Source: Prorocentrum cordatum
Taxonomy: Eukaryota
Reading direction: 5' to 3'
Assembly: GCA_963575745.1 (NCBI GenBank)
Contig: CAUYUJ010000162.1
Location: 62,001 to 117,413 of the forward strand
Length of the DNA stretch: 55,413 nucleotides
Every line of letters begins with the position of its first letter. Within the stretch, counting starts at the first letter, position 1. Below the pieces are notes generated by a model. It was not told the origin of the DNA. It ran no database searches and saw only the letters and a program-made list of their open reading frames with translations. Shown here one piece after another: positions 6,227 to 55,040 of the stretch. The position numbers and the translations under genes are program-made.

Positions 6227-8661
6227 GGCAAGAGGGCACGGGTATCAGTGCGCCCCCTCGCGCCGATTCCACCCGGAAAAGAGGGGCAGCCGCTTGGGCC
6301 AGAGGCCGCGGTGCGCGAGGAGATTCGCGCCCCCGCGAAAGGCCTGCGCGTCGGCCGGAAGAAGTATACAACAACACGGAGTAGGATTAACCAACCACCA
6401 GCGATAATAATGACTGGGGAGAAGAAACTTCGGGGGTCGAACGGGGATAGTAATGGATTGTCGCGGGGAAGGTAAGTTATGATGCTTAGCGGGGAGTGGA
6501 CGCTCAGCGCGTTTGATGCTGTTGCCAGTCAAAATGAGATGATAACAACTTCGATTCGCAACTTCCCAAGTGGATTATAAAGTTCGGCCTCCGCGCCCAT
6601 CTCCACAATAAAACCCTGTTGAACGGAGGTGAAAAAAATAGAGGGGGGTAAGGGGGGTAGGCTTTATCATCGCCCGTGGTGGGTTATGTTGCTCACAGCA
6701 TACTTAAGGACCTCATCCCAGCAATCATTTCGAGCACCAAGACAAGTATCGAAACAATGTCGAACAAATACCGCTTCCCAGGGCCCGACACATGCCCCCC
6801 CCCCAAGTTTCGGTTCTCGAACTTCTTTCTGGTGTTCAGGGCGAAAGTCGGATTGGGCTCAGGCCCTCCCAGAAAATAACAAGACACTGCAAAAGCGAAT
6901 CGGTTCTTGGAGTAGTAAGGCGCTCGAAGTAGATTGGGCTCTGGGAGCCCAGAAACATATACTTTCAACGACTGACGTGTGGTCAGCGGGGGGCACCAAT
7001 ATGGGAACAAGACCAGGATGCCAAACAAACGCGGCATATACACAATCTCGAGGGTCTTCACAACACACCTGCTGATGGCAAACCACCCTAACTCTGGAGT
7101 GGTGCTAGAAAAGAGCTCTAAGACGCGCTGGGCATCAGGCTACCGAGCGGGAAACAGAGCGTTCAAAATGAGGGACGATGAATGCCCTCGCTTTGTGAAA
7201 AAAGCTAGATGGAGCCGCTACGAAACATGCGAGATGCCCAGTGCGGCCGAAACGGCTGGCACTGGACACAGGCAACACAGGCGCTGCCAGGCCCGCGTGG
7301 CGTTGCCCTCGAACGGGAAACTGGACCGTGCCAGCGCGTTGGACCCGCGCGTATGGCGGGAGCGTGGGGAGCGGGTTGGGGCGGGGAGCCATTTGAGGTG
7401 CTGGCGGAGGCCGGGGCCTCCAGAGCGACCACCGACGCGCCCTCCACCCGGGGCCACAAGGGCGAGTGGAGAGACCCGCAGCGGCCTTCACCCACGGGGC
7501 CCGCGGCGCCCGGGGCGAACGAAACCACTGCGAGCTGCGCCGGCGGCCACTCCAGAGAGCTCAGCCCGCCGCGCAGCGGCCTCCAGGCCGCCCGGACACC
7601 CCCAGAGCCCGGCGTGGCGCTGCCATATGCCTGGGGGGCAGCTGAATTAGAAACTGTTCAAGCATTTGGAGCAGAGCGGGAGCGCCTGCTCATCCCCCCA
7701 TCTTGGGGTCACCGCTTTCGACCACTAGGTTTGCCTCGCCCGGGAAAAGGGCGACCCGACGCGCCCGAGCTCACGCCATGAAGGGGAGCAGGAGGGTGTG
7801 GTCTTCCGCGTCGAGGGTCTTCACAACGATTCCTTGGATCTGCGCTGGGTCCCCCCACTGGCAGCGCATCTGGCGCCGCCCCTGGCATCCAAGACCCCGC
7901 ACCAACCCCCGAACGACCCCCCCGTGACTGAATCGGAGATCCCCCGCCTGCTCACTCTTTCCCGCCCTTCTACCACCTCCTACTCCTCCTCCAGAGGCAA
8001 CCAACATGTACCGAAACCGCTTCTTCCCAGACCTGTCATGGTGTGCTTTCTGATCCGAATTTCGAAGCGAATCCATCGGTAGCGACAAGAGCCTCCCCAA
8101 AGGCCCGAAACGACGAAAACGACGGCAATGTAGGGGTATCATAACCATTTCCTCCTACTCCTCCTGCCCTCCCAGAATGAGGAGAGGGGGGACGGCAGGG
8201 TAGGGGTATCAGAACCCTTTCCTTCTACTCCTCCTGCCCTCCCAGAAGGACGAGGAAGGGGGAGATGATGACGGAGAGAGGGAGGAGGAGGAGGAGGAGG
8301 AGGAGGAGGAGGAGGAGGAGGAGGAGGAGGAGGAGGAGGAGGGGAGGAGGAGGAGGAGGAGGAGGAGGAGGAGGAGGAGGAGGAGGAGGAGGGTGAGGGG
8401 GAGGAGGAGGAGAACGAGGAGGAGGAGGAGGAGGAAGTAGAGGAGGAGGAGGAGGAGGAGGAGGAGGAGGAGGAGGAAGGTTACGGAGAAGGAGGAGGAG
8501 GAGGCGGAAGAGGAGGAGGAGGCGGAAGAGGAGGAGCAGGAGGAAGAGAAGGAGGAGGCGGAGGAGGGGAAGAGGAGGAGGACGAGCAGGGGGAGGAAAA
8601 CGAGGAGGAAGGCTACGGAGAAGGAGGGGGAGGAAGAGGAGTAGGAGGGGAGAAGGAGGAG

Positions 8662-12513: not shown

Positions 12514-13621
12514 GAGGAGGAGGAGGAGGAGGAGGAGGAGGAGGAGGGGGAGGGGGAGGAGGAGGAGAAGGAGGAGGAGGGAGAGGAGGAGGAGGAAGAG
12601 AACATGAATCATGTTACGAGAAGGAGGCCCAGGAAACGGAAGAGCGAGGTACGCGAGGAGTGGACGAGGGTGAGAAGGAGGAGAGGAGAGGAACGAGGAG
12701 GAGAGGAGGAGGAGGGGAGGATGAAGAGGACGAGAAGGGGAGGAAGGAAAAAAGAGGGAGGAAGGTTTTTTTTAATTACGGGAGGACGGTTGGTAGGGCC
12801 CGGAGGAGGAGGAGGAGGAGGGGAGAAGGAGGAGGAGAAGGAGGTGAGAGGAGGATGAGGAGGAGGGGAGGAGGAGGAGGATGAGGAGGAGGAGGAGAGG
12901 AGGAGGGGAGGGAGGAGGAGCACGAGGAGGAGGAAGAGGAGGAGGAGGAGGAGGAAGGGGGGAGGAGGTGGGGGGAGGAGGGGGAGGAGGGGAAGGAGGA
13001 CGAAGGAGGAGGCGGGAGGGGGAGGGACAGGAATGGGAGCGACGGGAGGAGGGTAGGAGGAGGGAGGGAGGAGGGGTAGGCAGGAGGAGGAGGTAGGAGG
13101 AGGAGGAGGGGAGGAGGAGGATGGAACGGAAGAGGAAGGAGGAGGGGGAGGGGAGGGCACGAGGAGGGGAGAGGAGGAGGAGGAGGAGATGGAGGAGGGG
13201 AATAGGAGGAGGAGGAGGAGGAGGAGGAGGAGCGGAGAACGGAGGACGAGGCCACGAGGAGAAGATGGAACGCAGGTGGAGGAGGGGAGGAGAAAGGAGA
13301 AAGGGGTGGGAGGAGGAGCGAGGAGGAGGAGGGGGGGGAAAGGTGGGCGAGGAGGAGGAGGGGGAGGTGATGGAAGAGGAGGAGCAGGAGGAGGAGGAGG
13401 AGGAGGAGGAGGGGAAGGTGATGGAAGAGGAGGAGGAGGAGGAGGAAGGCCAGGCGCCAGCTCTCCCCGAGATCCCTTTGTCCGCCTCGCCACGCGCTCG
13501 ACATGATGGGCGAGCTCCGCCCATCCCCACGGGGCCTCGGGTCGCCCGGGGGACACCGACATGTGACGGGCCCAGAATCGGAGTCGACGACGGGGGCGAA
13601 TAGCTGGTGGGGACAAAATTA

Positions 13622-17164: not shown

Positions 17165-18106
17165 GCAAAGTCACGACAAGTCCCTGCAGGGTCCCGGCAA
17201 GTTCGGGTCGGGACTGCCGGAACTCCTGGGCGCGGCCCTGCATGGGGGGCCTCCCGAACGCCCCAGGAGCCGGCGGTGGACAAACCTCCCTTTAGCAAAC
17301 CTCCCCTTAGTGAAGACGGCCTGGGACCGAAACCGACGGACTGGGACCGAAAACGGCCTTAGTGAAAACGGCCTTTAGAAAACCTCCCCTTAGCGAAAAC
17401 GGCCTTAGTGAAAACGGCCTGGGACCGAAAACGGCCTGGGACCTGCAAAAATGGCGGCCGCGACGCCCTCTGGCGAACCGAGCCCCGACGCAGCCCCATC
17501 AAGGAAGGCGCCAAACACGTGGCAGGCCCAACGGCCTCAGGCCAAGAATGCTCCAGCCCAAGATGGCCCAAGTCGGTTCCAAGGCGGTACGCACGAGGCG
17601 CTCAAGACGCCCCAGGAAGGCTCCGAGAGGACCCCGGGTGTGCCCGAGGAGGCAAAGTTCCTTGATTCTGCTATGGTTGGAAAGTTTGGTGTTGCTGCCT
17701 CTTGAAACTTCCGACCGTCAAGGACGGCCCAAGAGGCCCCCGAGGTCGCCCCAAGGTCCCCCCAACCCAAGAAGCTCCCAGGACGGCCCAAGAGGGCCCC
17801 ACGACGGTCCAACCTGCGCTCCGAGAGGGCTCAGGAGGACAGCCCTTCAGCCCGGGTCGTCTTCTGACAGCCCCCGGGCCCGTGGAGGGCCCCGAAACGG
17901 CGAGACACCTCAGGACCCTCTCCCTCGGGATCGTTTTTAAAATAAAAAAAGGACCCGGGGCACTCTGGGAGGGGACCCAAGTTGGGAAGGCCGAAAACAT
18001 CAGGGATAAGGGCTCTCTGAGTCAAACCGCCCCCAGGCTTATGATCCCTAGTGCGAAGGCGGGGACCTCAGTGAGGCAACGTCTTCACAGTGGTATTGGG
18101 TTAGGG

Positions 18107-25051: not shown

Positions 25052-25151
25052 NNNNNNNNNNNNNNNNNNNNNNNNNNNNNNNNNNNNNNNNNNNNNNNNN
25101 NNNNNNNNNNNNNNNNNNNNNNNNNNNNNNNNNNNNNNNNNNNNNNNNNNN
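25052..25151. other. Assembly gap (100 N)
   Basis: Run of exactly 100 N after a poly-C tract. Confidence 0.99.
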
Positions 25152-25640
25152 GACATCGACCTGGACTCGGCGACGCATCGTGGAGAGATCCGCACTGTAG
25201 GCCCCGACAGCGAAGCTCCGCGTTCCTGGGCTGAGGGGTAACGAGGGTGGGGGCCTGGTTCACCTTAGTTAGGGGGATAACATCGACCTGGACTCGGCGA
25301 CACATCGCGGAGAGATCCGCCCTAGGCCCCGATAGCGAAACCCCAGGATCCCGTCGGCGTGGAATGGGCGACTGAAGGTCGATGCATCCCCCCCCCTGAG
25401 CCTATCCCCCCAAGCGTGTCTTCGTCGCCTGGCTCGCGGGTCTCCAGCGGCCGTCGGGTACCATCCGGGCACCGTCGGACGCCTCTCGGCTAGGCGCAGC
25501 TGCTGGTACGCATCCCGAGGCAGGAAAGTGCCGAGGACAAACAATAGCATCCCCCCCTCGAGCCTACTTATACCCCCACCTGATGTTACCCCTGGATGAC
25601 GCCCTGGGGCCCAAGACGAAGCACGGCGGCGACCCGATGT

Positions 25641-25853
25641 CTACAACGCGAAGGCGTCCGCGACGGTCTCGCCCGCCGAGGCCCCGCTCAGGAGCCGTCC
25701 GCCTGGCAGGGCCGCGTCGGCGCGGCCGAGCCCAGGGCCCAGCCTGCCCGCGCCCAGCTCGCCCGCCAGCCAATCGCGCACGCCGGCGAGAGGCGCGCCG
25801 GGCGCCGCCCGCACCCGGCAGCGCTCCACCCCGCCCAGGGTCAGGAAGCGCAC
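25641..25853 (-). CDS. RCC1-repeat protein, exon 2 (putative ubiquitin-like C-terminal domain)
   Basis: Removing the GT...AG insert at 26035-25854 joins ...LDGGA|VRFLTLGGVERC... in frame through to the TAG stop. Confidence 0.75.
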   Translation of the reverse strand: MRFLTLGGVERCRVRAAPGAPLAGVRDWLAGELGAGRLGPGLGRADAALPGGRLLSGASAGETVADAFAL

Positions 25854-26035
25854 CTCGCCAGCAAGGAACGGATCCTCCAGCTTTCCGCTTTGACTTTCGC
25901 CTCCCCAGGCCCCCCGCGCGCCCCAGGGCTGTCAGAAAACGGCTCAGGATGAAAGTCTGCTCCAACGGGGGACGGCCTGGGCCCCGGGGTCCAGGACCAG
26001 TTCCCCTCGAGACCCGTTCCCTTCATGCCAAGCAC
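25854..26035 (-). mobile_element. Introner: 182-nt MITE-derived GT-AG intron
   Basis: Imperfect TIRs CTTGGCATGAAGGGAACGGGTCTC / GAGGATCCGTTCCTTGCTGGCGAG with duplicated GTG. The donor GT comes from the TSD and the acceptor AG from the TIR end. Confidence 0.8.
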
Positions 26036-26953
26036 CGCGCCACCGTCGAGCGACGCCTGCAGGAGCAGCGTCGCGCCGACGAGCAGGCGCGCGGTGTACG
26101 TCAGGCCACTGTCCAACGGCGGCACGTTGCACTGGCCGGCGAGATTCAAGCCTAAAGCCACGGCCGTGCCGTCGCTCCTGAGCAGCGCCGTGTGAACGCC
26201 TCCCGCGGCGACCTGCGTGTAGCTCAGGCCACCGTCCAGCGCCGGCACGTTGCACTGGCCGGAGCGATTCCCGCCGAAGGCCACGGCCGTGCCGTCGCTC
26301 TTGAGCAGCGCCGTGTGATCGCCTCCCGCAGCGACCTGCGTGTAGCTCAGGCCACCGTCCAGCGCCGGCACGCTGCACTGGCAGAAGTCATTCGCGCCGA
26401 AGGCCACGGCCGTGCCGTCGCTCCTGAGCAGCGCCGTGTGGGCACTTCCCGCGGCGACCTGCGTGTAGCTCAGGCCACCGTCCAGCGCCGGCGCGTTGCA
26501 CTGGCCGGAGCGATTCAAGCCGAAAGCCACGGCCGTGCCGTCGCTCCTGAGCAGCGCCGTGTGTTCGCCTCCCGCAGCGACCTGCGTGTAGCTCAGGCCA
26601 CCGTCCAGCGCCGGCACAATGCACTGGCCGAGGTCATTCCTGCCGAAGGCCACGGCCGTGCCGTCGCTCCTGAGCAGCGCCGTGTGATAGTTTCCCGCGG
26701 CGACCTGCGTGTAGCTCAGGCCACCGTCCAGCGCCGGCACGTTGCACTGGCCCAAGCCATTCCGGCCGAAGGCCACGGCCGTACCGTCACTCCTAAGCAG
26801 CGCCGTGTAGGCACTTCCCGCGACGACCTGCATATAATTCAGACCACCGTCCAACGCCGGCGCGTTGCACTGGCCGCCGTGATTCGCGCCGAAGGCCACG
26901 GCCGTGCCGTCGCTCCTGAGCAGCGCCGTATAGCCGCCTCCCGCGGCGACCAT
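26036..26953 (-). CDS. RCC1/BLIP-II-type beta-propeller protein, exon 1 (7 x 41-aa repeats)
   Basis: Seven tandem 123-bp repeats of QVAAGxxHTALLRSDGTAVAFGxNxxGQCxxPALDGGLSYT with strong GC3 bias. The ATG at 26953 lies downstream of a relic SL-like motif, although the frame is open upstream to 27145. Confidence 0.9.
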
Positions 26954-27042
26954 TCGTGGGCGCGGTCGGGAAGCCCGGGGGCCCGCGGAGGGGGGCGCGC
27001 GCGGGCTCCTGGGAGCGCTCGGGGCTCCCGGGGGGGCCGCGG

Positions 27043-27064
27043 CTCGAGCCGGAGCGACTTGCGG
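27043..27064 (-). other. Degenerate relic dinoflagellate spliced leader
   Basis: CCGCAAGTCGCTCCGGCTCGAG versus DinoSL CCGTAGCCATTTTGGCTCAAG. All substitutions are transitions, plus one inserted base. It lies ~90 nt upstream of the ATG. Confidence 0.45.
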
Positions 27065-27353
27065 GCAGAGGGGCGGCCCACGGGGCTCCCGCCCCTGGAG
27101 GCCGGCTGGAAGGCGGCGCAAACAAGAAGCAGTGGCTGTGGTCATTTTCCCGTCCCGCAGTCATTCTTCGTTCCCCTCTTTCCCCCCTCCCTCTGCCCCC
27201 CTCCGCGCGTGGCCGAGACACCGCCACGGACCGCACCGAACCGACCGAGCGCCGCCGACGGCGGCGCAGCCCCGGCGCGGCCGCACCGCGAAGACCCCCC
27301 GTGTGGGCGCCTCTGGCCCTGCCCTGCCGCCCTGCCCCTCCTCCCCCCCAGCA

Positions 27354-27892
27354 TTAGGCCGGGCATATCCTCCTACAAATAAGTCGGGCGGGTCCTTCGT
27401 GGGCCCTGGAAACGACGGGGCCTTTTTTTTACCGGTTCCGTTCTGCCGTTTTTTTGCCGGTTCCGTCGCCGTTTTTTGACCGGTTCCGGCTCCGGTTCCA
27501 ATCCTGGAGCCGTTTTTTCGCCGTTTCCGCTCGCCGCTTTTTTACCGTTTCCAGTTTCAAGGGACATTTTTTGGGGAAACGGTGAAAAAACGGCCCTGCC
27601 GTTTCCGGGGCCCACAAAGGGCGGGTCCACCTACAGAGGGATTTTGGGCGAAAATTTGAAAACACTCCGAAAATGCCCCCAAATGCTCAAAGATAGTCAA
27701 AAATAGTCCCCGGGACTATTTTTTCAGATCTTTGAATATCCCCCCTGTAGAGGGACGGGCCCGACTTAATCCTACAGGCGGACGGGGGCGGAAATATTTA
27801 AGAATACCCTAACATAGTCAACAAAGCGTCCCCAGACTATGTTTTACCATCTTTCTGAACATTCCTCCTGTGGAGGGACAGGCCCGCCTTAA
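27354..27892. mobile_element. Triple-nested MITEs: family A > family A (27379-27769) > 10-bp-TSD TIR element (27396-27618)
   Basis: TSDs CCCCAGCA/CCCCAGCA, TCCTACAA/TCCTACAG and GGGCGGGTCC/GGGCGGGTCC. Innermost TIR ttcgtgggccctggaaacgacggggcc / ggccctgccgtttccggggcccacaaa. Confidence 0.92.
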
Positions 27893-31317: not shown

Positions 31318-33900
31318 GCAAGCTAGGTGCGCTCGCGTCATATCTGCCGTCGTATCCCTCCCTCCCATCCCTTACCACGGTGTAGATCTCCTCTCGATTC
31401 GCATAATCGGATGTCGTAGCATGACATAGGATTAAATGTCATAGCATAGTGTTGAAGATTAACGCGTAGCATGACGTAGCATGGCGTGGCGACGCCCCAA
31501 AGCGGGGAGAGGGGCTTCGCGGCCCCAAAAAACAACGAACCGATACCAAATGTGTAATCATGTCCGATGGTTTCTTCGGCATGCATGTTTTTCGATTTTG
31601 GGGCCTATATTCGGAAGGACCGAAAACCAGGCCGTGGCATGGCATTGGAAATAATAACGCCAACGCTGTAGCATGGGGCTGGGACCTATTCGAAAGGACC
31701 GAAAACCATGCCGTGGCATGGGGCTGGAAACGCTGACGCCAACGCTGTAGCGGGAGCACGATTCGGAACGAGCGGAAGCGCGGAAATGAGGCCAGCGTTG
31801 CAGCGGGAGCGCGATTCGGAACGAGCGGTAGACCGAAAATGAGGCCAGCGCTTCAGAGGGAGCAGCATTTTGAAAAAGAAACCAAGCGCGGAAGCGCGGA
31901 CATGAGGACACCTAGCCTGACATATCATGGCGTGGTGACGCCCCAAATTTGGGGGGCTTATGCGGTCCAAGAACTCAACGCACAGGCACCGAATGTGTAA
32001 TCACTTCCGATGATTTCTTCGGGGGGTGGCGGACAATTTTCAGAATTCTGGGACCTATTCGAAAGGACCGAAAACCATGCCGGGGCATGGGGCTGGAAAT
32101 GCTGATGCCAACGCTGCAGCGGGAACACGATTCGGAACGAGCGGAAGCGCGGAAATGAGGCCAACGTTGCAGCGGGAGCGCGATTCGGAACGAGCGGTAG
32201 ACCGAAAATGAGGCCAGCGCTTCAGCGAGAGCAGCATTTTGAAAAAGAAACCAAGCGCGGAAGCGCGGACTTGAGGACGCCTAGCCTGACATAGAATGGC
32301 GTGGTGACGCCCCAAAGTGGGTTGGCTTATGCGGCCGAAAAACTCAACGCACCGGCACCGAATGTGTAATCACGTCCGATGATTTCTTCGGGGGGGGGGC
32401 GGGCCATTTTCAGAATTTTGGGACCTATTCGAAAGGACCGAAAACCATGCCGTGGCATGGGGCTGGAAACGCTGACGCCAACGCTGCAGCGGGAACACGA
32501 TTCGGAACGAGCGGAAGCGCGGAAATGAGGCCAGCGTTGCAGCGGGAGCACGATTCGGAGCGAGCGGTGGTCCGAAAATGAGGCCAGCGCTTCAGCGAGA
32601 GCAGCGTTTTGAACAAAAGGCCCAGCGAAAACCGCGTCCCGGGAATCCTGCGTGTACAATAACCAATACACGAAGGGGGGCCGGCCATTCCCCGGACGCC
32701 ACCAGGGGAGAGAGGAGAGTCGTAGTCATGTTGTGTAATTGGGAGGGAGGGGGAGGGGCAGAGGGGAGGGAGGGAGGGGGAGGGTCCAAGCTAGGTGCGC
32801 TCGCGTCATATCTGACATCCTACCACTCCCTCCCATCCCTTACCATGGCGTAGATCCCCTCTCTACTCGCACAGTCGGATGTCGAGCAGGGCAATGATCC
32901 CGAAAGGGTACGCGATGCATTGTAGAGCACGGCATGGCATGGCGTAGAAGAGCACCGCAAAGCGTAGTATGTCACAGCATGGCGTGGCGTGGCGTAGTGA
33001 AGAATTGTATCCCAAAGCTTTGCAACGCAAAGCATGGCATCGCACAGCGGCCCCGAACATAACATTGCATAGCATGGCGTTGAAGATCAAAGCGCAGCAT
33101 TGTATAGCACGACGTGGCACTTAAGCACTGCATAGCACAGCTTCAGCAGAAGGCATGGCATCGCGCAGCGGAACGCAACCTAGCATGGCATTGCATGCCG
33201 TGGCATGGCACGGGAAATGACGCCAGCGCTGCAGCGGGAGCACGATTCGAAACGAGCGGAAGCGCGGAAATGAGGCCAACGCTGCAGCGGGAGCACGATT
33301 GAGAACGAGCGGAAGCACGGAAATGAGGCCAGCGCTGCAGCGGGAGCACGATTCGGAGCGAGCGGTGGTCCGAAAATGAGGCCAGCGCTTCAGCGAGAGC
33401 AGCGTTTTGAACAAAAGGCCCAGCGAAAACCGTTCCCCGGGAATCCTGCGTGTACAATAACCAGTACGCGGAGGGGGGCCGGCCATTCCCCGGACGCCAC
33501 CAGGGGAGAGAGGAGAGTCGTAGTCGTGTTGTGCAATTGGGAGGGAGGGGGAGGGGCAGAGGGAGAGGGAGGGAGGGGGAGGGGCAGAGGGGGGAGCGAG
33601 GGAGGGAGGGGGGCAGGGGCAGGAGGGCCCGGTGCCGTCCCTCAAAAAAAACAAGGGCTGCGCGAGAGGCACGCGGGCAGGGCGCCGCACGGGGAGGGGG
33701 GAGGGGGGGCGGAAAGAGAGAAGAGGGGAAGGAGGGAGAGGGGGAGGGGGGGGGAGGGGAGGGGGAGGGAGAGGGGAGGGGGAGGGAGGAGGGAGAGGGG
33801 GAGGAGAGGAGGGGAAGAGAGAGAGGGGGAGGAGGGCAAGCTAGGTGCGCTCGCGCCGCATCTGACATCCTATCCATGCCGCCCATCCCTCTCCCACTGC
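31318..33900 (+). repeat. Composite tandem repeat with 53-bp subunits
   Basis: Unit head caagctaggtgcgctcgcg at ~31319, 32787 and 33837. Recurring GAAATGAGGCCAGCGCTGCAGCGGGAGCACGATTCGGAACGAGCGGAAGCGCG subunits and GCATG/GCATA pentamer tracts. Confidence 0.9.
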
Positions 33901-39751: not shown

Positions 39752-41891
39752 AGGCGACGGGAGTAGAGAACAGAAACGCCATCTGGTCAGCACTGGGCTC
39801 CGAGCTGCTCGAACGCCGCCAAACAAAACAGATCATTGACCCGACCCTCAGGGCCACGACGAGTCAGGGCAAGGCTCGGTGATCTCAGGCACCACATGCG
39901 CGGACCGTGCCCTTGTTTGACCCCGGCGGGAGGGGCAGGAGCGGGAGCGACACCAGGCCAACTCCCAGAGGCCTGCACGGTGGCGTCTGGGGGGGATCGG
40001 CGGGGATGTCCATTGGCCTAGAGCGCCGCGCGGGATGCCACTAGTCTTGGGGAAAACGATCGGTACCCATACAGTGGGCTTGATTGGAGAGGACACGCGA
40101 GAGGACACAAGACCCTTGCGAGAGCCACATCGCCACAGGAACGTACGAAACATGGGTCGCGAGACACAGGACACAAAAATATCCTTGATCTGGCAGGGTC
40201 GACCTACTAATCCGGGCCGCCTGTGCCGCTACTCCCCGGACCTCTCCCCCGGGCGCGCTCTGACCAGCAATGCGAGGCGAATCGAGCGAGGGGCGACGGG
40301 GGCCTTCCAGGTGGCCCAAACAGGGGAACACAGGGGGACGGGTAGCGGTAATTACGGGTACACGTCGGTCGGAAGAAGTAGGTAAAAACATGAAGTAGGA
40401 AGCCGGATTCAGTTGATTGGGTCCAGGCCCCCCCAGAGAATAACAAGCCACAGCAAAAGCGTGCCGATTCTTGAAGTAGGAAGGCGCTTGAAGTAGATTG
40501 GGATCTGGGGACCCAAAAATACCTACTTTCAACGACCCGCGTGTACATTTGCCTCCTCTGAAGCCTGCGGCGGCACTCGCAGACTGGGAGACGATCGCGC
40601 GAAAGACAGGAATGCTGGAGCCCGATGGCGAGGTCACTGAGCCCAGGGCCTGTTTCCGACCACGGACATTACAGTGCGGGCGCTGCCGCAAGAAACTCTC
40701 GCAAGGAACCCAACCCTGAAAACCCGCGCGCGAGGTGCACCTGAGAGGAAGCCCGGAGCACCCTGAACGCAGGAGCTTCCTGAGCGGCTGCGGGAAGCCG
40801 CCGCGCGGCGCGTGGAGCCAAGAGACCCAGGGTGCCCTGACGAAAAGGAGATGGTTTCTCGACGCGCGCCCCCACCGTGCCGGCGCCATCCCAGGAGTTC
40901 CATCATGATGTCGCTGATGCCGCTCCGTTGCAGACTCCTGACGTCAAAGGAGGAGGAGGAGGAGGTGGAGGAGGAGGAGGAGAAGGAGGAGGAGGAGGAG
41001 GAGGGGGAGGGGGAGGGGGAGTGAGGAGGGAGGAGGAGAGGAGGAGGAGGAGGGGGAGGAGGAGGAGGAGGAGAGAGGAGGAGGAGGAGAGGAGGAGGAG
41101 AAGAGGAGGAGGAGGAGGAGGAGGAGGAGGAGGAGGAGGAGGAGGAGGAGGAGGAGAGGAGGAGGAGGAGGAGGAGGAGGAGGAGGAGGGGGAGGGGAGG
41201 AGGAGGAGGAGGAGGGAGGGAGGAGGAGGAGGAGGAGGAGGAGGAGGATGAGGAGGAGGGAGGAGGAATCAACCCCCCCAGGAGCTGCATCCTCATGTCG
41301 CTCCGCTGCGGGCTCCCGTCCCGAGCGCCACGGAGCTCGCCCCTGGGGCCGCGGGCGGAGCTGGGCGGCGGTGGCCCCTTTGTCGCCGTGGCTGGGCGAG
41401 GCGCGGGAGCCGTGCTCTCGTGGAGGGTTCCCGGGAGGGGCCACGGGAGGAGGGAGCCGCTCATCCTCCTGATCCTCCTCCTCCTCCTCCACCTCCTCCT
41501 CCTCCTCCTCCTTCTCCTCTTTCTCCTCCTCCTCCTCCTCCTCCTCCTCCTCCTCGTCCTCCTGGGGCCACGGGAGGAGGGAGCCAGGGGAGAGCAAGGC
41601 AGGGAGAAATTACGGAGGAGAAGGGAGGGGGGTGGGATGCTGGGGCATGACGGGAAGGAGCAGGATAGCGGTAAGCGAGCAGGAGAAGGAGAGCGGGCAG
41701 GAGGAGCTTCAGACAGAGGACGAGGCAGACGGACGAGGGACGAAGAGGAGAACGAGGAGAAGAGCGGCAGCGGAAGCGCAGGAGAGGAAGAGCACGACGA
41801 GGCGGACGAGGACGAGGACGAGAAGGCAGGAAGGAGGGAGGGAGGGAGGGGCGAGATGTGGGGGAGGGATGAGACGAGGCCGTGGCCCGTC

Positions 41892-45697: not shown

Positions 45698-47085
45698 CCT
45701 CCTCCTCCCCCTCCCCCTACCCCTCCTCCTCCTCCTACTCCTCCTCCTCCGCCTCCTCCTCCTCCTGCTCCTCGTCCTCCTCCTCCTCCTGCTCCTCTTC
45801 CTCTTCCTCCCACATCCTCCTCCTCCTATCCTCCTGCCCCATCCTCCTCCCCCATCCTCCTCTCCCACCCTCCTCTCCCATGTTCCCCCCCCATACCTCC
45901 TCCCCCATCCCTCCCCTCCTCCTCCTCCTCCCCTCCTCCTCTCCTCCCTCCTCCTTTCTCCTCCGCCTCCTCCTCCTCCCTCCTCCTCCTCCTCAAAACA
46001 AACTTATCCTCGCCCTCCTCCTCCTCCGCCTCCTCCTCCTCCTACTTCGCCTCCTCCTCCTCCTCCTCCTCCTCCTCCCCCTACCCCTCCTCCTCCTCCT
46101 ACTCCTCCTCCTCCTCCCCCTGCTCCCACCATCCCGCCCGCCCCCCTCTCCCACCACCCCCCTCCCCCGATTGTCGGGCCTGATTGGAGAGGGCACGCGA
46201 GGAGGACACAGGACCCTTCCGAGGGCTGCACACTGCCGCAGGAATGTAGAAGGCACGGGTCGCGAGACACGCGACACAAGGGTGCCCTCGACTTGGCAGG
46301 GTCGATCTACCCACTAAGCAAGGCCGACTGTAAGACGAAGCCAAGACGAGGGCACATTCGGGTAAGGATACCTCGGGAATCTCTGCGATCCCGCGGCTCT
46401 GCCGGATGCATCGGGCGCCACGGTCTTCTCAGAGCGTTCTGGAACGATCTGAGAGCGTTCTGGAAAGCTCTGGGATGGAATTGTTATCGTCCTAGCCCCG
46501 TCCGACCAGAGGTCTCGAACCATTTCTCGGGACTGGTGTTCTATCTGGAAATGTTTGTTTACGGTACCGAGGCCTGGTAGGGGCCCCTAAAGGCTGAAAG
46601 TAGCGACAAAGCGTCAGTCGTGATTGTTTCACGACGCGAGGGGATCTGCGGGGCGGTTGCCTCAGTCCAGTGCTTGTAGTTGTCTCTTCCTCGCCCATGA
46701 TTATACTGGCCCTCACTGCCCTCGTCCCAGCCCCGCCCGAGCCCCCCCCCGTCGACCTCCCATCCCCTGCCTCCCCGGAGGGAAACAGGCCGATACAGTG
46801 GAGGCCAGTCCACAAGAAACCTGTCACAAGAAACCCAACCCTGAGATCCCAGGACGTCCTTTGGTGTTTGGTGTGGGAACGTCACGCGTTCAATCGCAAG
46901 ACCATCGAAACCCCAGGGCACCATGGAGGCAAGCAGGGTGTCTCTTGGCATGGGCCCCCACTGTAGGCAAGGCAGGCAGCACATACGGCGCGAGAGGACC
47001 AGAGGGGGAGCCGTGGGAGGGAGGCGGCCGTGGGAGGGAGAGGCAGCAGGGGACGCGAGGATGCCTGGGAAGGGTCCTCCTGCGT

Positions 47086-54469: not shown

Positions 54470-55040
54470 TCCAAAACCCCCCTCCACAATTACTCAATAG
54501 GAATACTACTCTCCCTCTTCCCCTGATGACGGTTTGAAAGTGCTCGACACCCCACCGCGTACTGTTTTTTTTGCACACAGGTTTCCCCGGAGTTGGATTT
54601 GGGCCTGCATTTTTTTCAAAAAGCTGCTCTCGCTGAGGCGTTGGCCTCATTTTGAGGCCCCGCTCGTTCCGAATCGAGCTCCCGCTGCAGCGCTGGCCTC
54701 ATTTCCGTGCTTCCGCTCGTTCCGAATCGTGCTCCCGCTGCAGCGCTGGCCTCACTTCCGCGCTTCCGCTCGTTTCGACTCGTGCTCCCGCTGCAGCGCT
54801 GGCGGCATGTTCCCGTGCCATGCCTATCGGCATGCAATGCAAATGCTAGGTTGCTACTAAACGCTTTGCGGTGCTCTTCTACGCCATGCCATGCCGTGCT
54901 CTACAATGCATCGCGTACCCTTTCGGGATCATTGCCCTGCTCGACATCCGACTGTGCGAGTAGAGAGGGGATCTACGCCATGGTAAGGGATGGGAGGGAG
55001 GGGTAGGATGTCGGATATGACGCGAGCGCACCTAGCTTGT
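54470..55040 (-). repeat. Inverted copy of the 31.3-33.9 kb composite repeat unit
   Basis: Reverse complement of the 53-bp subunits and of the caagctaggtgcgctcgcg head. Confidence 0.88.

Follow-up and report, generated by a model that had tools for sequence, protein, structure and literature searches.

Introduction

Why would seven tandem copies of one repeat keep their scaffold DNA alike while they diverge at the same five codons? This question is raised by a propeller gene of the dinoflagellate Prorocentrum cordatum, which lies on the minus strand of contig CAUYUJ010000162.1 (assembly GCA_963575745.1). We analysed positions 62,001 to 117,413 of this contig, a stretch of 55,413 nucleotides that is called the window below, and all coordinates are those of the window. 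The gene encodes seven blades of the RCC1 type, followed by a C-terminal tail. A first reading, made from the sequence alone, had taken it for a candidate recognition receptor, diversified in the manner of the HET-E/D propellers of Podospora. Our data support a protein with a constant frame, a diversified binding face and shuffled blades.

RCC1 proteins are already known to be numerous in related organisms. Symbiodinium minutum has 189 RCC1 genes, an expansion that has been linked to permanently condensed chromatin, and 52 of the 86 Symbiodinium RCC1 proteins analysed there group with prokaryotic ones (PMC4083563). RCC1 also ranks among the ten commonest domains of two Symbiodinium genomes (PMC8045281).

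Results

Seven in-frame repeats and their variable codons

Tandem Repeats Finder detected one tandem array at 26094-26951, with a period of 123, 7.0 copies, 87% matches, zero indels and a score of 1240. The reverse complement of 26093-26953 divides cleanly into seven 41-codon units, all in frame, as the sequence-only reading had described. The repeat finder, Pfam RCC1_2 and an AlphaFold2 model agree that these seven 123-bp units (26093..26953, minus strand) are seven propeller blades. DNA identity between units ranges from 80.5 to 95.1%; it is highest between units 4 and 6, and the most divergent units are those at both array ends (units 1 and 7). Amino-acid identity between blades averages 79.1% (range 70.7-90.2%), and 83.2% for units 2-6.

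The codon table reproduced the residues that had been read at two places in each blade. The triplets after the residues AG are GGY, SAY, NYH, GEH, SAH, GDH and GVH in blades 1 to 7, and the quartets around an invariant asparagine are ANHG, RNGL, RNDL, LNRS, ANDF, GNRS and LNLA. The hypervariable codons are 6 and 7 in the first cluster and 23, 25 and 26 in the second, where N24 is invariant. On the minus strand, codons 6-7 and 23-26 read GG (26933..26938) and ANHG (26876..26887) in blade 1, SA (26810..26815) and RNGL (26753..26764) in blade 2, NY (26687..26692) and RNDL (26630..26641) in blade 3, and GE (26564..26569) and LNRS (26507..26518) in blade 4. They read SA (26441..26446) and ANDF (26384..26395) in blade 5, GD (26318..26323) and GNRS (26261..26272) in blade 6, and GV (26195..26200) and LNLA (26138..26149) in blade 7. 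Variants that recur in new combinations were found as described: AGTGCC in units 2 and 5, AATCGCTCC in units 4 and 6, TTGAAT in units 4 and 7, and GCGAAT in units 1 and 5.

Change within the array is concentrated in these two codon clusters far beyond chance. Across the seven units 38 of 123 nucleotide columns are variable, and they comprise 13 of the 15 columns of codons 6, 7, 23, 25 and 26 compared with 25 of 108 elsewhere (Fisher p 2.9e-6). When units 2-6 are taken alone the figures are 13 of 15 and 12 of 108 (p 3.6e-9). The five codons carry 161 of the 346 pairwise differences, that is 46.5% in 12.2% of the length. Nonsynonymous (dN) and synonymous (dS) differences per site were estimated by the Nei-Gojobori method over all 21 unit pairs. 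The five hypervariable codons gave a dN of 1.11 and a dS of 0.42, the latter from 3.9 synonymous sites only. The other 36 codons, which form the scaffold, gave a dN of 0.062 and a dS of 0.16 (0.097 for units 2-6). A dN of 1.11 against a scaffold dS of 0.16 means that the loops are changed about 7 times more, per nonsynonymous site, than the scaffold at its silent sites. A cruder count that is independent of pairs, based on the minimum number of changes, gave at least 20 codon changes at 11.1 nonsynonymous sites of the five codons and 10 synonymous changes at 28.2 scaffold sites, a ratio of 5.1 (binomial p 1.4e-5). By these counting methods dN/dS at the variable codons is above 1.

The same five positions stand out in the wider family. 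Nine P. cordatum paralogues (53 blades) vary most at these positions, with a mismatch of 0.63-0.85 compared with at most 0.49 elsewhere, and so does a set of 95 proteins (590 blades). When the window gene is compared with its five closest paralogues, blade mismatch is 87.6% at hypervariable positions and 14.3% at scaffold positions, and the 34 blades hold 29 distinct five-residue signatures. The tails of the five closest paralogues are 94-97% identical to one another. Over 229 dinoflagellate-type blades, the five positions have an entropy of 3.7-4.0 bits. In the public contigs described below, 15 of the 24 listed places inside the repeats that carry other letters fall in the five hypervariable codons.

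Scaffold likeness and exchange of blades

The sequence-only reading had described the repeats as nearly identical even at synonymous sites. The likeness of the silent sites stands; near identity does not, as scaffold dS is 0.16 and DNA identity between units falls to 80.5%. At a given scaffold position, the two units of a pair share their codon in 602 of 666 unit pairs (90.4%). When synonymous codons were shuffled among positions 2000 times, this share averaged 64% and peaked at 69%, and no shuffle reached 90.4%. Examples of such position-specific codons are GGA for Gly5 (7/7), GGT for Gly36 (6/6) and GGC for Gly22 (7/7). The synonymous likeness of the scaffold thus exceeds codon bias.

Ten of 28 pairs of informative sites failed the four-gamete test, silent scaffold pairs included. 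This fits unit-to-unit exchange, and with seven sequences recurrent mutation is also possible. All seven window blades find their best match in a paralogue and none in their own gene. The first blade matches the first blades of paralogues, and the last blade matches their last blades. This pattern fits blades that form a common pool through descent and exchange, with array ends that escape homogenisation. The mechanism that had been proposed, with alike scaffold DNA, focused loops and combinations shared within the gene and among paralogues, is supported by these data. Repeat shuffling, which was part of it, is seen in loop variants and whole blades that are common to the gene and its paralogues in new combinations.

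Propeller fold and position of the variable residues

Pfam assigned the product to RCC1_2 (PF13540) with E 5.3e-49 and 163 bits (cut-off 22) in seven stretches, while PF00415 gave E 1.2e-7 with no single stretch that passed alone. AlphaFold2, run on an alignment of 35 sequences, gave a model with a predicted local distance difference test score (pLDDT) of 93.8 and a predicted template modelling score of 0.89. Its 21 strands form seven sets of three. The seven-blade RCC1 propeller recognised from the sequence is therefore borne out by both the Pfam stretches and the model.

The best Foldseek matches of the model were BLIP-II structures (3qi0/1jtd; E 3e-18, template modelling score 0.79 normalised on the target, ~30% identity), followed by UVR8 (E 5.5e-18), RPGR, the ectodomain of the receptor kinase CRINKLY4, and RCC1. 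Matches in PDB with E of 0.001 or less numbered 150, and the rows listed are seven-bladed RCC1-type propellers. A phmmer search against PDB gave E 1.4e-22 for BLIP-II and ~2e-6 for RCC1. This ranking by fold and by sequence places the protein in the RCC1 superfamily as a member of the BLIP-II type rather than as an orthologue of RCC1. BLIP-II itself is a seven-bladed propeller with three strands per blade only (PMC6121496).

BLIP-II is thus the best match among solved structures in both sequence and fold, and the two proteins share seven three-stranded blades of ~40 residues. BLIP-II differs in that it is secreted by bacteria, has differentiated blades and is known to bind one class of target; it has no ubiquitin-like domain and does not form a multigene repertoire. 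The window protein lacks a signal peptide, and nothing points to beta-lactamase inhibition. In all seven blades codon 29 is a cysteine (TGC) within a G-Q-C motif, where BLIP-II has Thr or Leu.

Canonical RCC1-like domains, as in RCC1, UVR8, HERC and RPGR, are also seven-bladed and belong to the same superfamily. Their blades are four-stranded, with 51-68 residues, and their partner-binding faces are conserved. The blades of the window protein differ in having 41 residues, three strands and a variable face. A UVR8-like photoreceptor was considered and rejected: positions 6-7 never carry a Trp in the window gene, so the protein has no UVR8-like chromophore. In the paralogue P0033, positions 5-9 spell G-W-A-H-T in four of the five clean blades (1-3 and 5), a sequence that resembles the GWRHT motif that bears the chromophore tryptophans of UVR8.

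In the topology of the model, strands 1 and 2 are connected by the loop that holds positions 6-7, and positions 23-26 come directly after strand 3. Since the strands form an antiparallel meander, both clusters would lie on the same side of the propeller, opposite the S-D-G turn. We compared these positions with the 22 BLIP-II residues that are given as contacting TEM-1 or Bla1 in PMC10817188, a second-hand list in which we took 'Tyr19' as Tyr191. The mapping was made by hand on the HMMER alignment with a numbering offset of 38, by which Trp53, Trp152 and Trp269 fall on tryptophans. Sixteen of the 22 contacts lie exactly at positions 6, 7, 23, 25 or 26, and 20 of the 22 at positions 6-8 or 23-26. 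One of the remaining contacts is at position 30, which is variable here too, and one is outside the alignment. Leaving out the residue printed as 'Tyr19' gives 16 of 21 and 19 of 21. The residues by which BLIP-II touches its target therefore correspond to the hypervariable repeat positions of the window gene, so that the two clusters are the paratope positions of the closest solved relative, as far as the contacts listed in that paper go. The variable residues are not scattered over the structure; topology and the contact mapping place them on the same side. Five codons in each of seven blades would likely give 35 residues that line one face of the modelled propeller.

Gene structure

The long open reading frame at 25841..27145 was rejected as the gene model, because the tail of the paralogues is found in another frame and is joined through an intron. 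With tblastn the tail was located in a different frame of the window, with 91% identity to the tail of the P. cordatum protein P0031 and 89% to that of P0054. Exon 1 (26036..26953, minus strand; 918 nt, 306 codons), defined by paralogue starts and the splice search, holds the seven blades and the first 19 residues of the C-terminal part. The intron (25854..26035, minus strand; 182 nt, GT..AG) is the sole GT-AG join that restores the reading of the paralogues. Its exact cut is ambiguous because a 5-nt repeat occurs at both intron ends, and the mRNA is unchanged by this. Exon 2 (25641..25853, minus strand) was placed by tblastn to paralogue tails; it has 70 codons and the stop codon TAG (25643-25641), and encodes most of the C-terminal domain. 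The product is 376 aa long, with 287 aa in the seven blades and ~89 aa in the tail.

The best database relatives of the product are P. cordatum proteins. Five close ones start at the same first-blade Met and finish in the same tail, and a start at this Met is found in 23 of the 120 homologues listed. On the basis of this paralogue Met we place the start codon at the ATG of unit 1 (26953-26951, minus strand). The open reading frame list also offers an upstream in-frame ATG (27143..27145, minus strand) that would add 64 residues rich in Pro, Ala and Arg. We judge it the less likely start from the sequences compared. Upstream of the first-blade Met only ~11 residues are in common with the fused model P0001. 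On reading the sequence, no signal peptide, hydrophobic leader or membrane segment was found, and the product begins directly in the first blade. A tblastn search found no second family member elsewhere within the 55-kb window.

P0001, P0024 and P0025 each contain two propeller and tail units with a translated spacer between them, which suggests that they may be tandem family members fused by gene prediction. Frame-shifted blades occur in the paralogues P0033 and P0082.

C-terminal tail

The tail is conserved from Prorocentrum to Symbiodiniaceae, and homologues with the same repeat and tail were found among proteins of Prorocentrum, Cladocopium and other Symbiodiniaceae. A profile built from 16 tails matched 535 cluster representatives at E of 0.001 or less, 171 of them at 1e-10 or less. 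When the new matches of this profile were scanned with Pfam, RCC1_2 was present in 60 of 141, and in 28 of the 32 that have at least 250 aa. Judged from these sequences, the combination of propeller and tail appears to be fixed across the family. With a Symbiodiniaceae tail as query, a word-indexed search gave 6 matches only.

AlphaFold2 modelled the tail of P0031 with a pLDDT of 92.4. Pfam had no match for the tail, Foldseek against PDB returned nothing below E 0.39, and the ESM Atlas returned unnamed clusters only, at 0.85 or less. VIA-align, run over 48,161 chains, placed ubiquitin-like folds (UBX, SUMO, ubiquitin) at nearly all of the top 50 ranks with middling Z-scores of 4.2-5.5, led by the UBX domain of FAF1 (5.5), SUMO-2 (5.3) and UBXD7 (5.1). 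One match of the tail profile was a polyubiquitin (E 5e-13, seven stretches), and hhalign aligned the tail with this polyubiquitin in the usual ubiquitin register, with a probability of 11% only. From the model and these comparisons we regard the tail, with moderate confidence, as a predicted ubiquitin-like domain. The product ends in DAFAL directly before the stop codon and has no C-terminal Gly-Gly. If the tail is ubiquitin-like it is therefore an integral domain of the protein and not a modifier.

Transcripts

Logan contigs of four public runs were aligned on 25500-27300 at a likeness of at least 90%. One run is a PolyA RNA-Seq metatranscriptome, two were guessed to be RNA, and the kind of the fourth is not on record. 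Contigs of three runs, each from a different study, contain a joint from 25849 to 26032 that skips exactly the 182 nt of the predicted intron (CT..AC on the plus strand, cut +4); its depth is 94 in X1, 117 in X7 and 8 in X5. This establishes that the splice is real, and it shows expression of the family. An untranscribed locus would have spoken against the proposal, and on this point the answer is divided: spliced transcripts of the family exist, and none is shown to come from the window locus itself. The evidence for transcription thus concerns the family as a whole. No contig among the four runs shows a full mRNA from the window locus. Pieces without any difference from the window are two in X5 (26404-26472 and 26478-26547, inside blades 4 and 5) and one in X1 (25842-26004, unspliced, across the exon-2 boundary, depth 3.9).

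No conclusion was drawn from the bin 26781-26841, which covers the junction of blades 1 and 2 and is unique to the locus (depth 0 to 2.7), or from the share of sampled words, which was 0.20 or less in the four runs. Other blade-blade joints, with skips of 94, 201, 319, 450 and other lengths that are not multiples of 123, are maybe assembly artefacts and were not used. The ~60 nt at 27100-27160, upstream of the gene, occur in short contigs of X1, X5 and X20. The flanks of this stretch are unlike on both sides, with loose ends at 27100 and 27158/27159. Its sequence may represent a dispersed element or a shared 5' exon.

A question that is separate from the function of the family is whether the window locus is a silent or decaying copy. 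No identical protein is present among the best 120 matches, the spliced contigs differ at 4 exon-2 positions, and dinoflagellate genomes are described as rich in pseudogenes (PMC11114475). However, both exons are open, the splice sites are intact, the seven blades are in frame with a conserved scaffold, and the difference-free contig pieces of X5 and X1 exist. We consider it unlikely that the copy is silent or decaying.

Relatives outside dinoflagellates

Distant relatives of the window propeller, with 22-41% identity, were found in 15 of 50,697 phage records. The exact 35-nt scaffold pattern had zero matches in JGI metagenome contigs. A protein-guided metagenome scan gave 60 loci that are 26-56% identical and too distant for work on synonymous sites.

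Other features of the window

None of the 19 other long open reading frames of the window matched a Pfam family above threshold, and the only sub-threshold match was to TauE. A scaffold gap of 100 N lies at 25052-25151, 490 bp downstream of the stop codon of the gene. Upstream, ~270 bp from the upstream ATG, 27420-27560 consists of T-rich repeats of ~23 bp (GCCGTTTTTTTACCGG...), and an array at 17281-17443 carries a seemingly complementary motif (GAAAACGGCC...). From their sequences the two arrays may be one intergenic element in two orientations. A 369-bp tandem repeat at 31679-32613 (2.5 copies, 93% matches) contains nested 53-bp units. By eye, the 53-bp unit occurs again 1.5 kb on, at 33208-33401, and in reverse complement at 54660-54803. 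Trinucleotide arrays of GGA, GAG and CCT, up to ~930 bp long, fill much of the 55 kb; examples are 12514-13446, 8281-8661, 40948-41267 and 45698-46126.

Discussion

The anatomy of the array, the clustering of change with dN above scaffold dS, the match to the BLIP-II contacts, the sharing of blades and the spliced transcripts of the family were all observed. They are consistent with a constant frame that carries a diversified binding face and draws on blades shared among paralogues. We think it probable that each paralogue is an intracellular binder with a target of its own. In the mechanism that we propose, five codons per blade would be diversified while the scaffold DNA is kept alike by shared descent and blade exchange. 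The variable face would serve as the paratope of each paralogue, on the same face and at the same repeat positions that BLIP-II uses on beta-lactamases. The constant ubiquitin-like domain might be a common handle to shared downstream machinery. New specificities could then arise through point changes in the loops and through re-assortment of 123-bp blades.

Several points weigh against this interpretation. The role of intracellular binder is inferred from the fold and the evolutionary pattern. The dN/dS values come from seven short, non-independent units and from a counting method without a site model, and the five codons were first chosen from the same data, though the paralogues define them independently. 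The same positions are also the least conserved in bacterial homologues, whose entire repeat diverges, so the pattern may partly reflect weak constraint on the loops. The placement on one face depends on topology and the BLIP-II mapping, in which the HMMER register is off by one in two blades. Blade identity, at 79% (83% for internal blades), is below the cut of 85% used for fungal repeats (PMC4986451). The ubiquitin-like assignment is weak (best Foldseek E 0.39, middling VIA-align Z-scores, hhalign 11%). Several P. cordatum models have frame-shifted or fused blades, and differences in blade number among paralogues (5-8 blades) are therefore unreliable. With 4 exon-2 differences from the window, the spliced contigs represent an allele or a close paralogue.

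The main rival explanation is an ordinary propeller that was recently amplified. The units would then be alike because the array is young, the loops would merely be unconstrained, and there would be neither selected diversity nor a repertoire. Highly repetitive RCC1/BLIP-II propellers are a known class that is explained by continual amplification from single blades, and in the set of Pereira and Lupas (2022) they are given as 10%, mostly bacterial (PMC9218822). The window gene resembles that set in its blade family, its high internal symmetry and the presence of disrupted copies (P0033 and P0082). Conservation across 95 homologues of all origins is lowest at positions 6, 7, 23, 25 and 26, as it would be in unconstrained loops. 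However, neutral loops should not outpace silent scaffold sites, and here a dN of 1.11 stands against a scaffold dS of 0.16, with a ratio of 5.1 by the minimum count. The explanation does not account for loops that are saturated while nearby silent scaffold sites are not. Independent amplification is recognised, in the terms of PMC9218822, by blades that are closest to blades of the same protein. All seven window blades are closest to paralogue blades, which is the opposite, and the end blades match end blades. Unlike the propellers of that set, as far as they are described in that paper, the window blades are shared among paralogues and their divergence is focused on five codons. We leave this explanation a small but real chance.

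The proposal made from the sequence was a non-self recognition receptor like HET-E/D, which would sense foreign or allelic proteins through its variable face and set off a response. In its evolutionary pattern the gene matches the WD40, ANK and TPR repeats of fungal NOD-like receptors (NLRs; NOD, nucleotide-binding oligomerization domain), which combine a concerted scaffold with hypervariable positions on the binding surface and exchange repeats within and between paralogues (PMC4986451). The likeness to HET-E, HET-D, HET-R and NWD extends, on the account in that paper, to internal conservation and to an excess of nonsynonymous change at a few binding-surface positions, which was obtained here by a counting method on 7 units. 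The fungal proteins differ in their repeat fold and in having NOD and effector domains, and none of these was matched in the window protein. Pfam searches of the window product and of P0031, P0001, P0007 and P0012 detected neither a NACHT or NB-ARC domain nor an effector domain. A small predicted ubiquitin-like domain is all that accompanies the propeller, with no death domain, and the reading of the sequence gave no signal peptide or membrane segment. In the fungal work high internal conservation means a repeat identity of at least 85% over at least 100 residues (PMC4986451), and the window blades are under this cut. The receptor proposal thus found no support, and we regard it as improbable. 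A canonical RCC1-like regulator, either an exchange factor for Ran or another GTPase or a chromatin-condensation protein, is hardly credible, for although the RCC1_2 placement and the link of the 189 Symbiodinium genes to condensed chromatin favour it (PMC4083563), the window protein is far nearer to BLIP-II (E 1.4e-22) than to RCC1 (~2e-6), its 41-residue blades are three-stranded with a weak PF00415 match, the face that would hold a conserved partner is its most variable part, and 52 of 86 Symbiodinium RCC1 proteins group with prokaryotic ones.

If the paralogues are intracellular binders, a much stronger version of this idea can be formulated. The family might be a germline-encoded library of intracellular binders with an antibody-like logic, made of dozens to hundreds of genes that share a constant BLIP-II-type frame. 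Paratopes of 35 residues would be rebuilt by shuffling of 123-bp blades, both inside a gene and among paralogues, and selection would maintain their diversity. The tail would then couple bound proteins of viruses, parasites or bacteria to the proteasome, p97 or the autophagy machinery. We consider this version unlikely as it stands. Were it true, it would be a system of innate immunity or restriction with a new architecture, built without NOD or leucine-rich repeats, and would call for a re-reading of the long-known dinoflagellate RCC1 expansion.

The fold, the gene expansion and the evolutionary mode were each known before. New is their combination in a dinoflagellate nuclear family with a predicted ubiquitin-like tail. 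A full-text literature search found no paper that joins RCC1 with this mode of hypervariable sites on a concerted scaffold. The window gene is a member of the dinoflagellate expansion, which the literature treats as a matter of chromatin and condensation proteins and of an abundant domain (PMC4083563, PMC8045281). The relevant passages of these two papers mention neither a hypervariable face on a constant frame nor a ubiquitin-like tail.

Since 2013 the RCC1 expansion has been one of the most conspicuous traits of dinoflagellate genomes and one of the least understood, and it has been read as chromatin machinery. Our data suggest that at least one large branch of it has a binder frame of the BLIP-II type, in which the predicted contact face evolves fastest and a putative ubiquitin-like domain stays constant. 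Even if there is no repertoire, the locus is a clean example of focused divergence within a homogenised repeat array. If the diversified repertoire is real, it would be a second eukaryotic example of a concerted scaffold with hypervariable positions after the fungal NLRs, in a new fold, and would offer a natural compact scaffold for engineered binders. It would also give a handle on the recognition of partners, parasites and viruses in bloom-forming dinoflagellates and coral symbionts.

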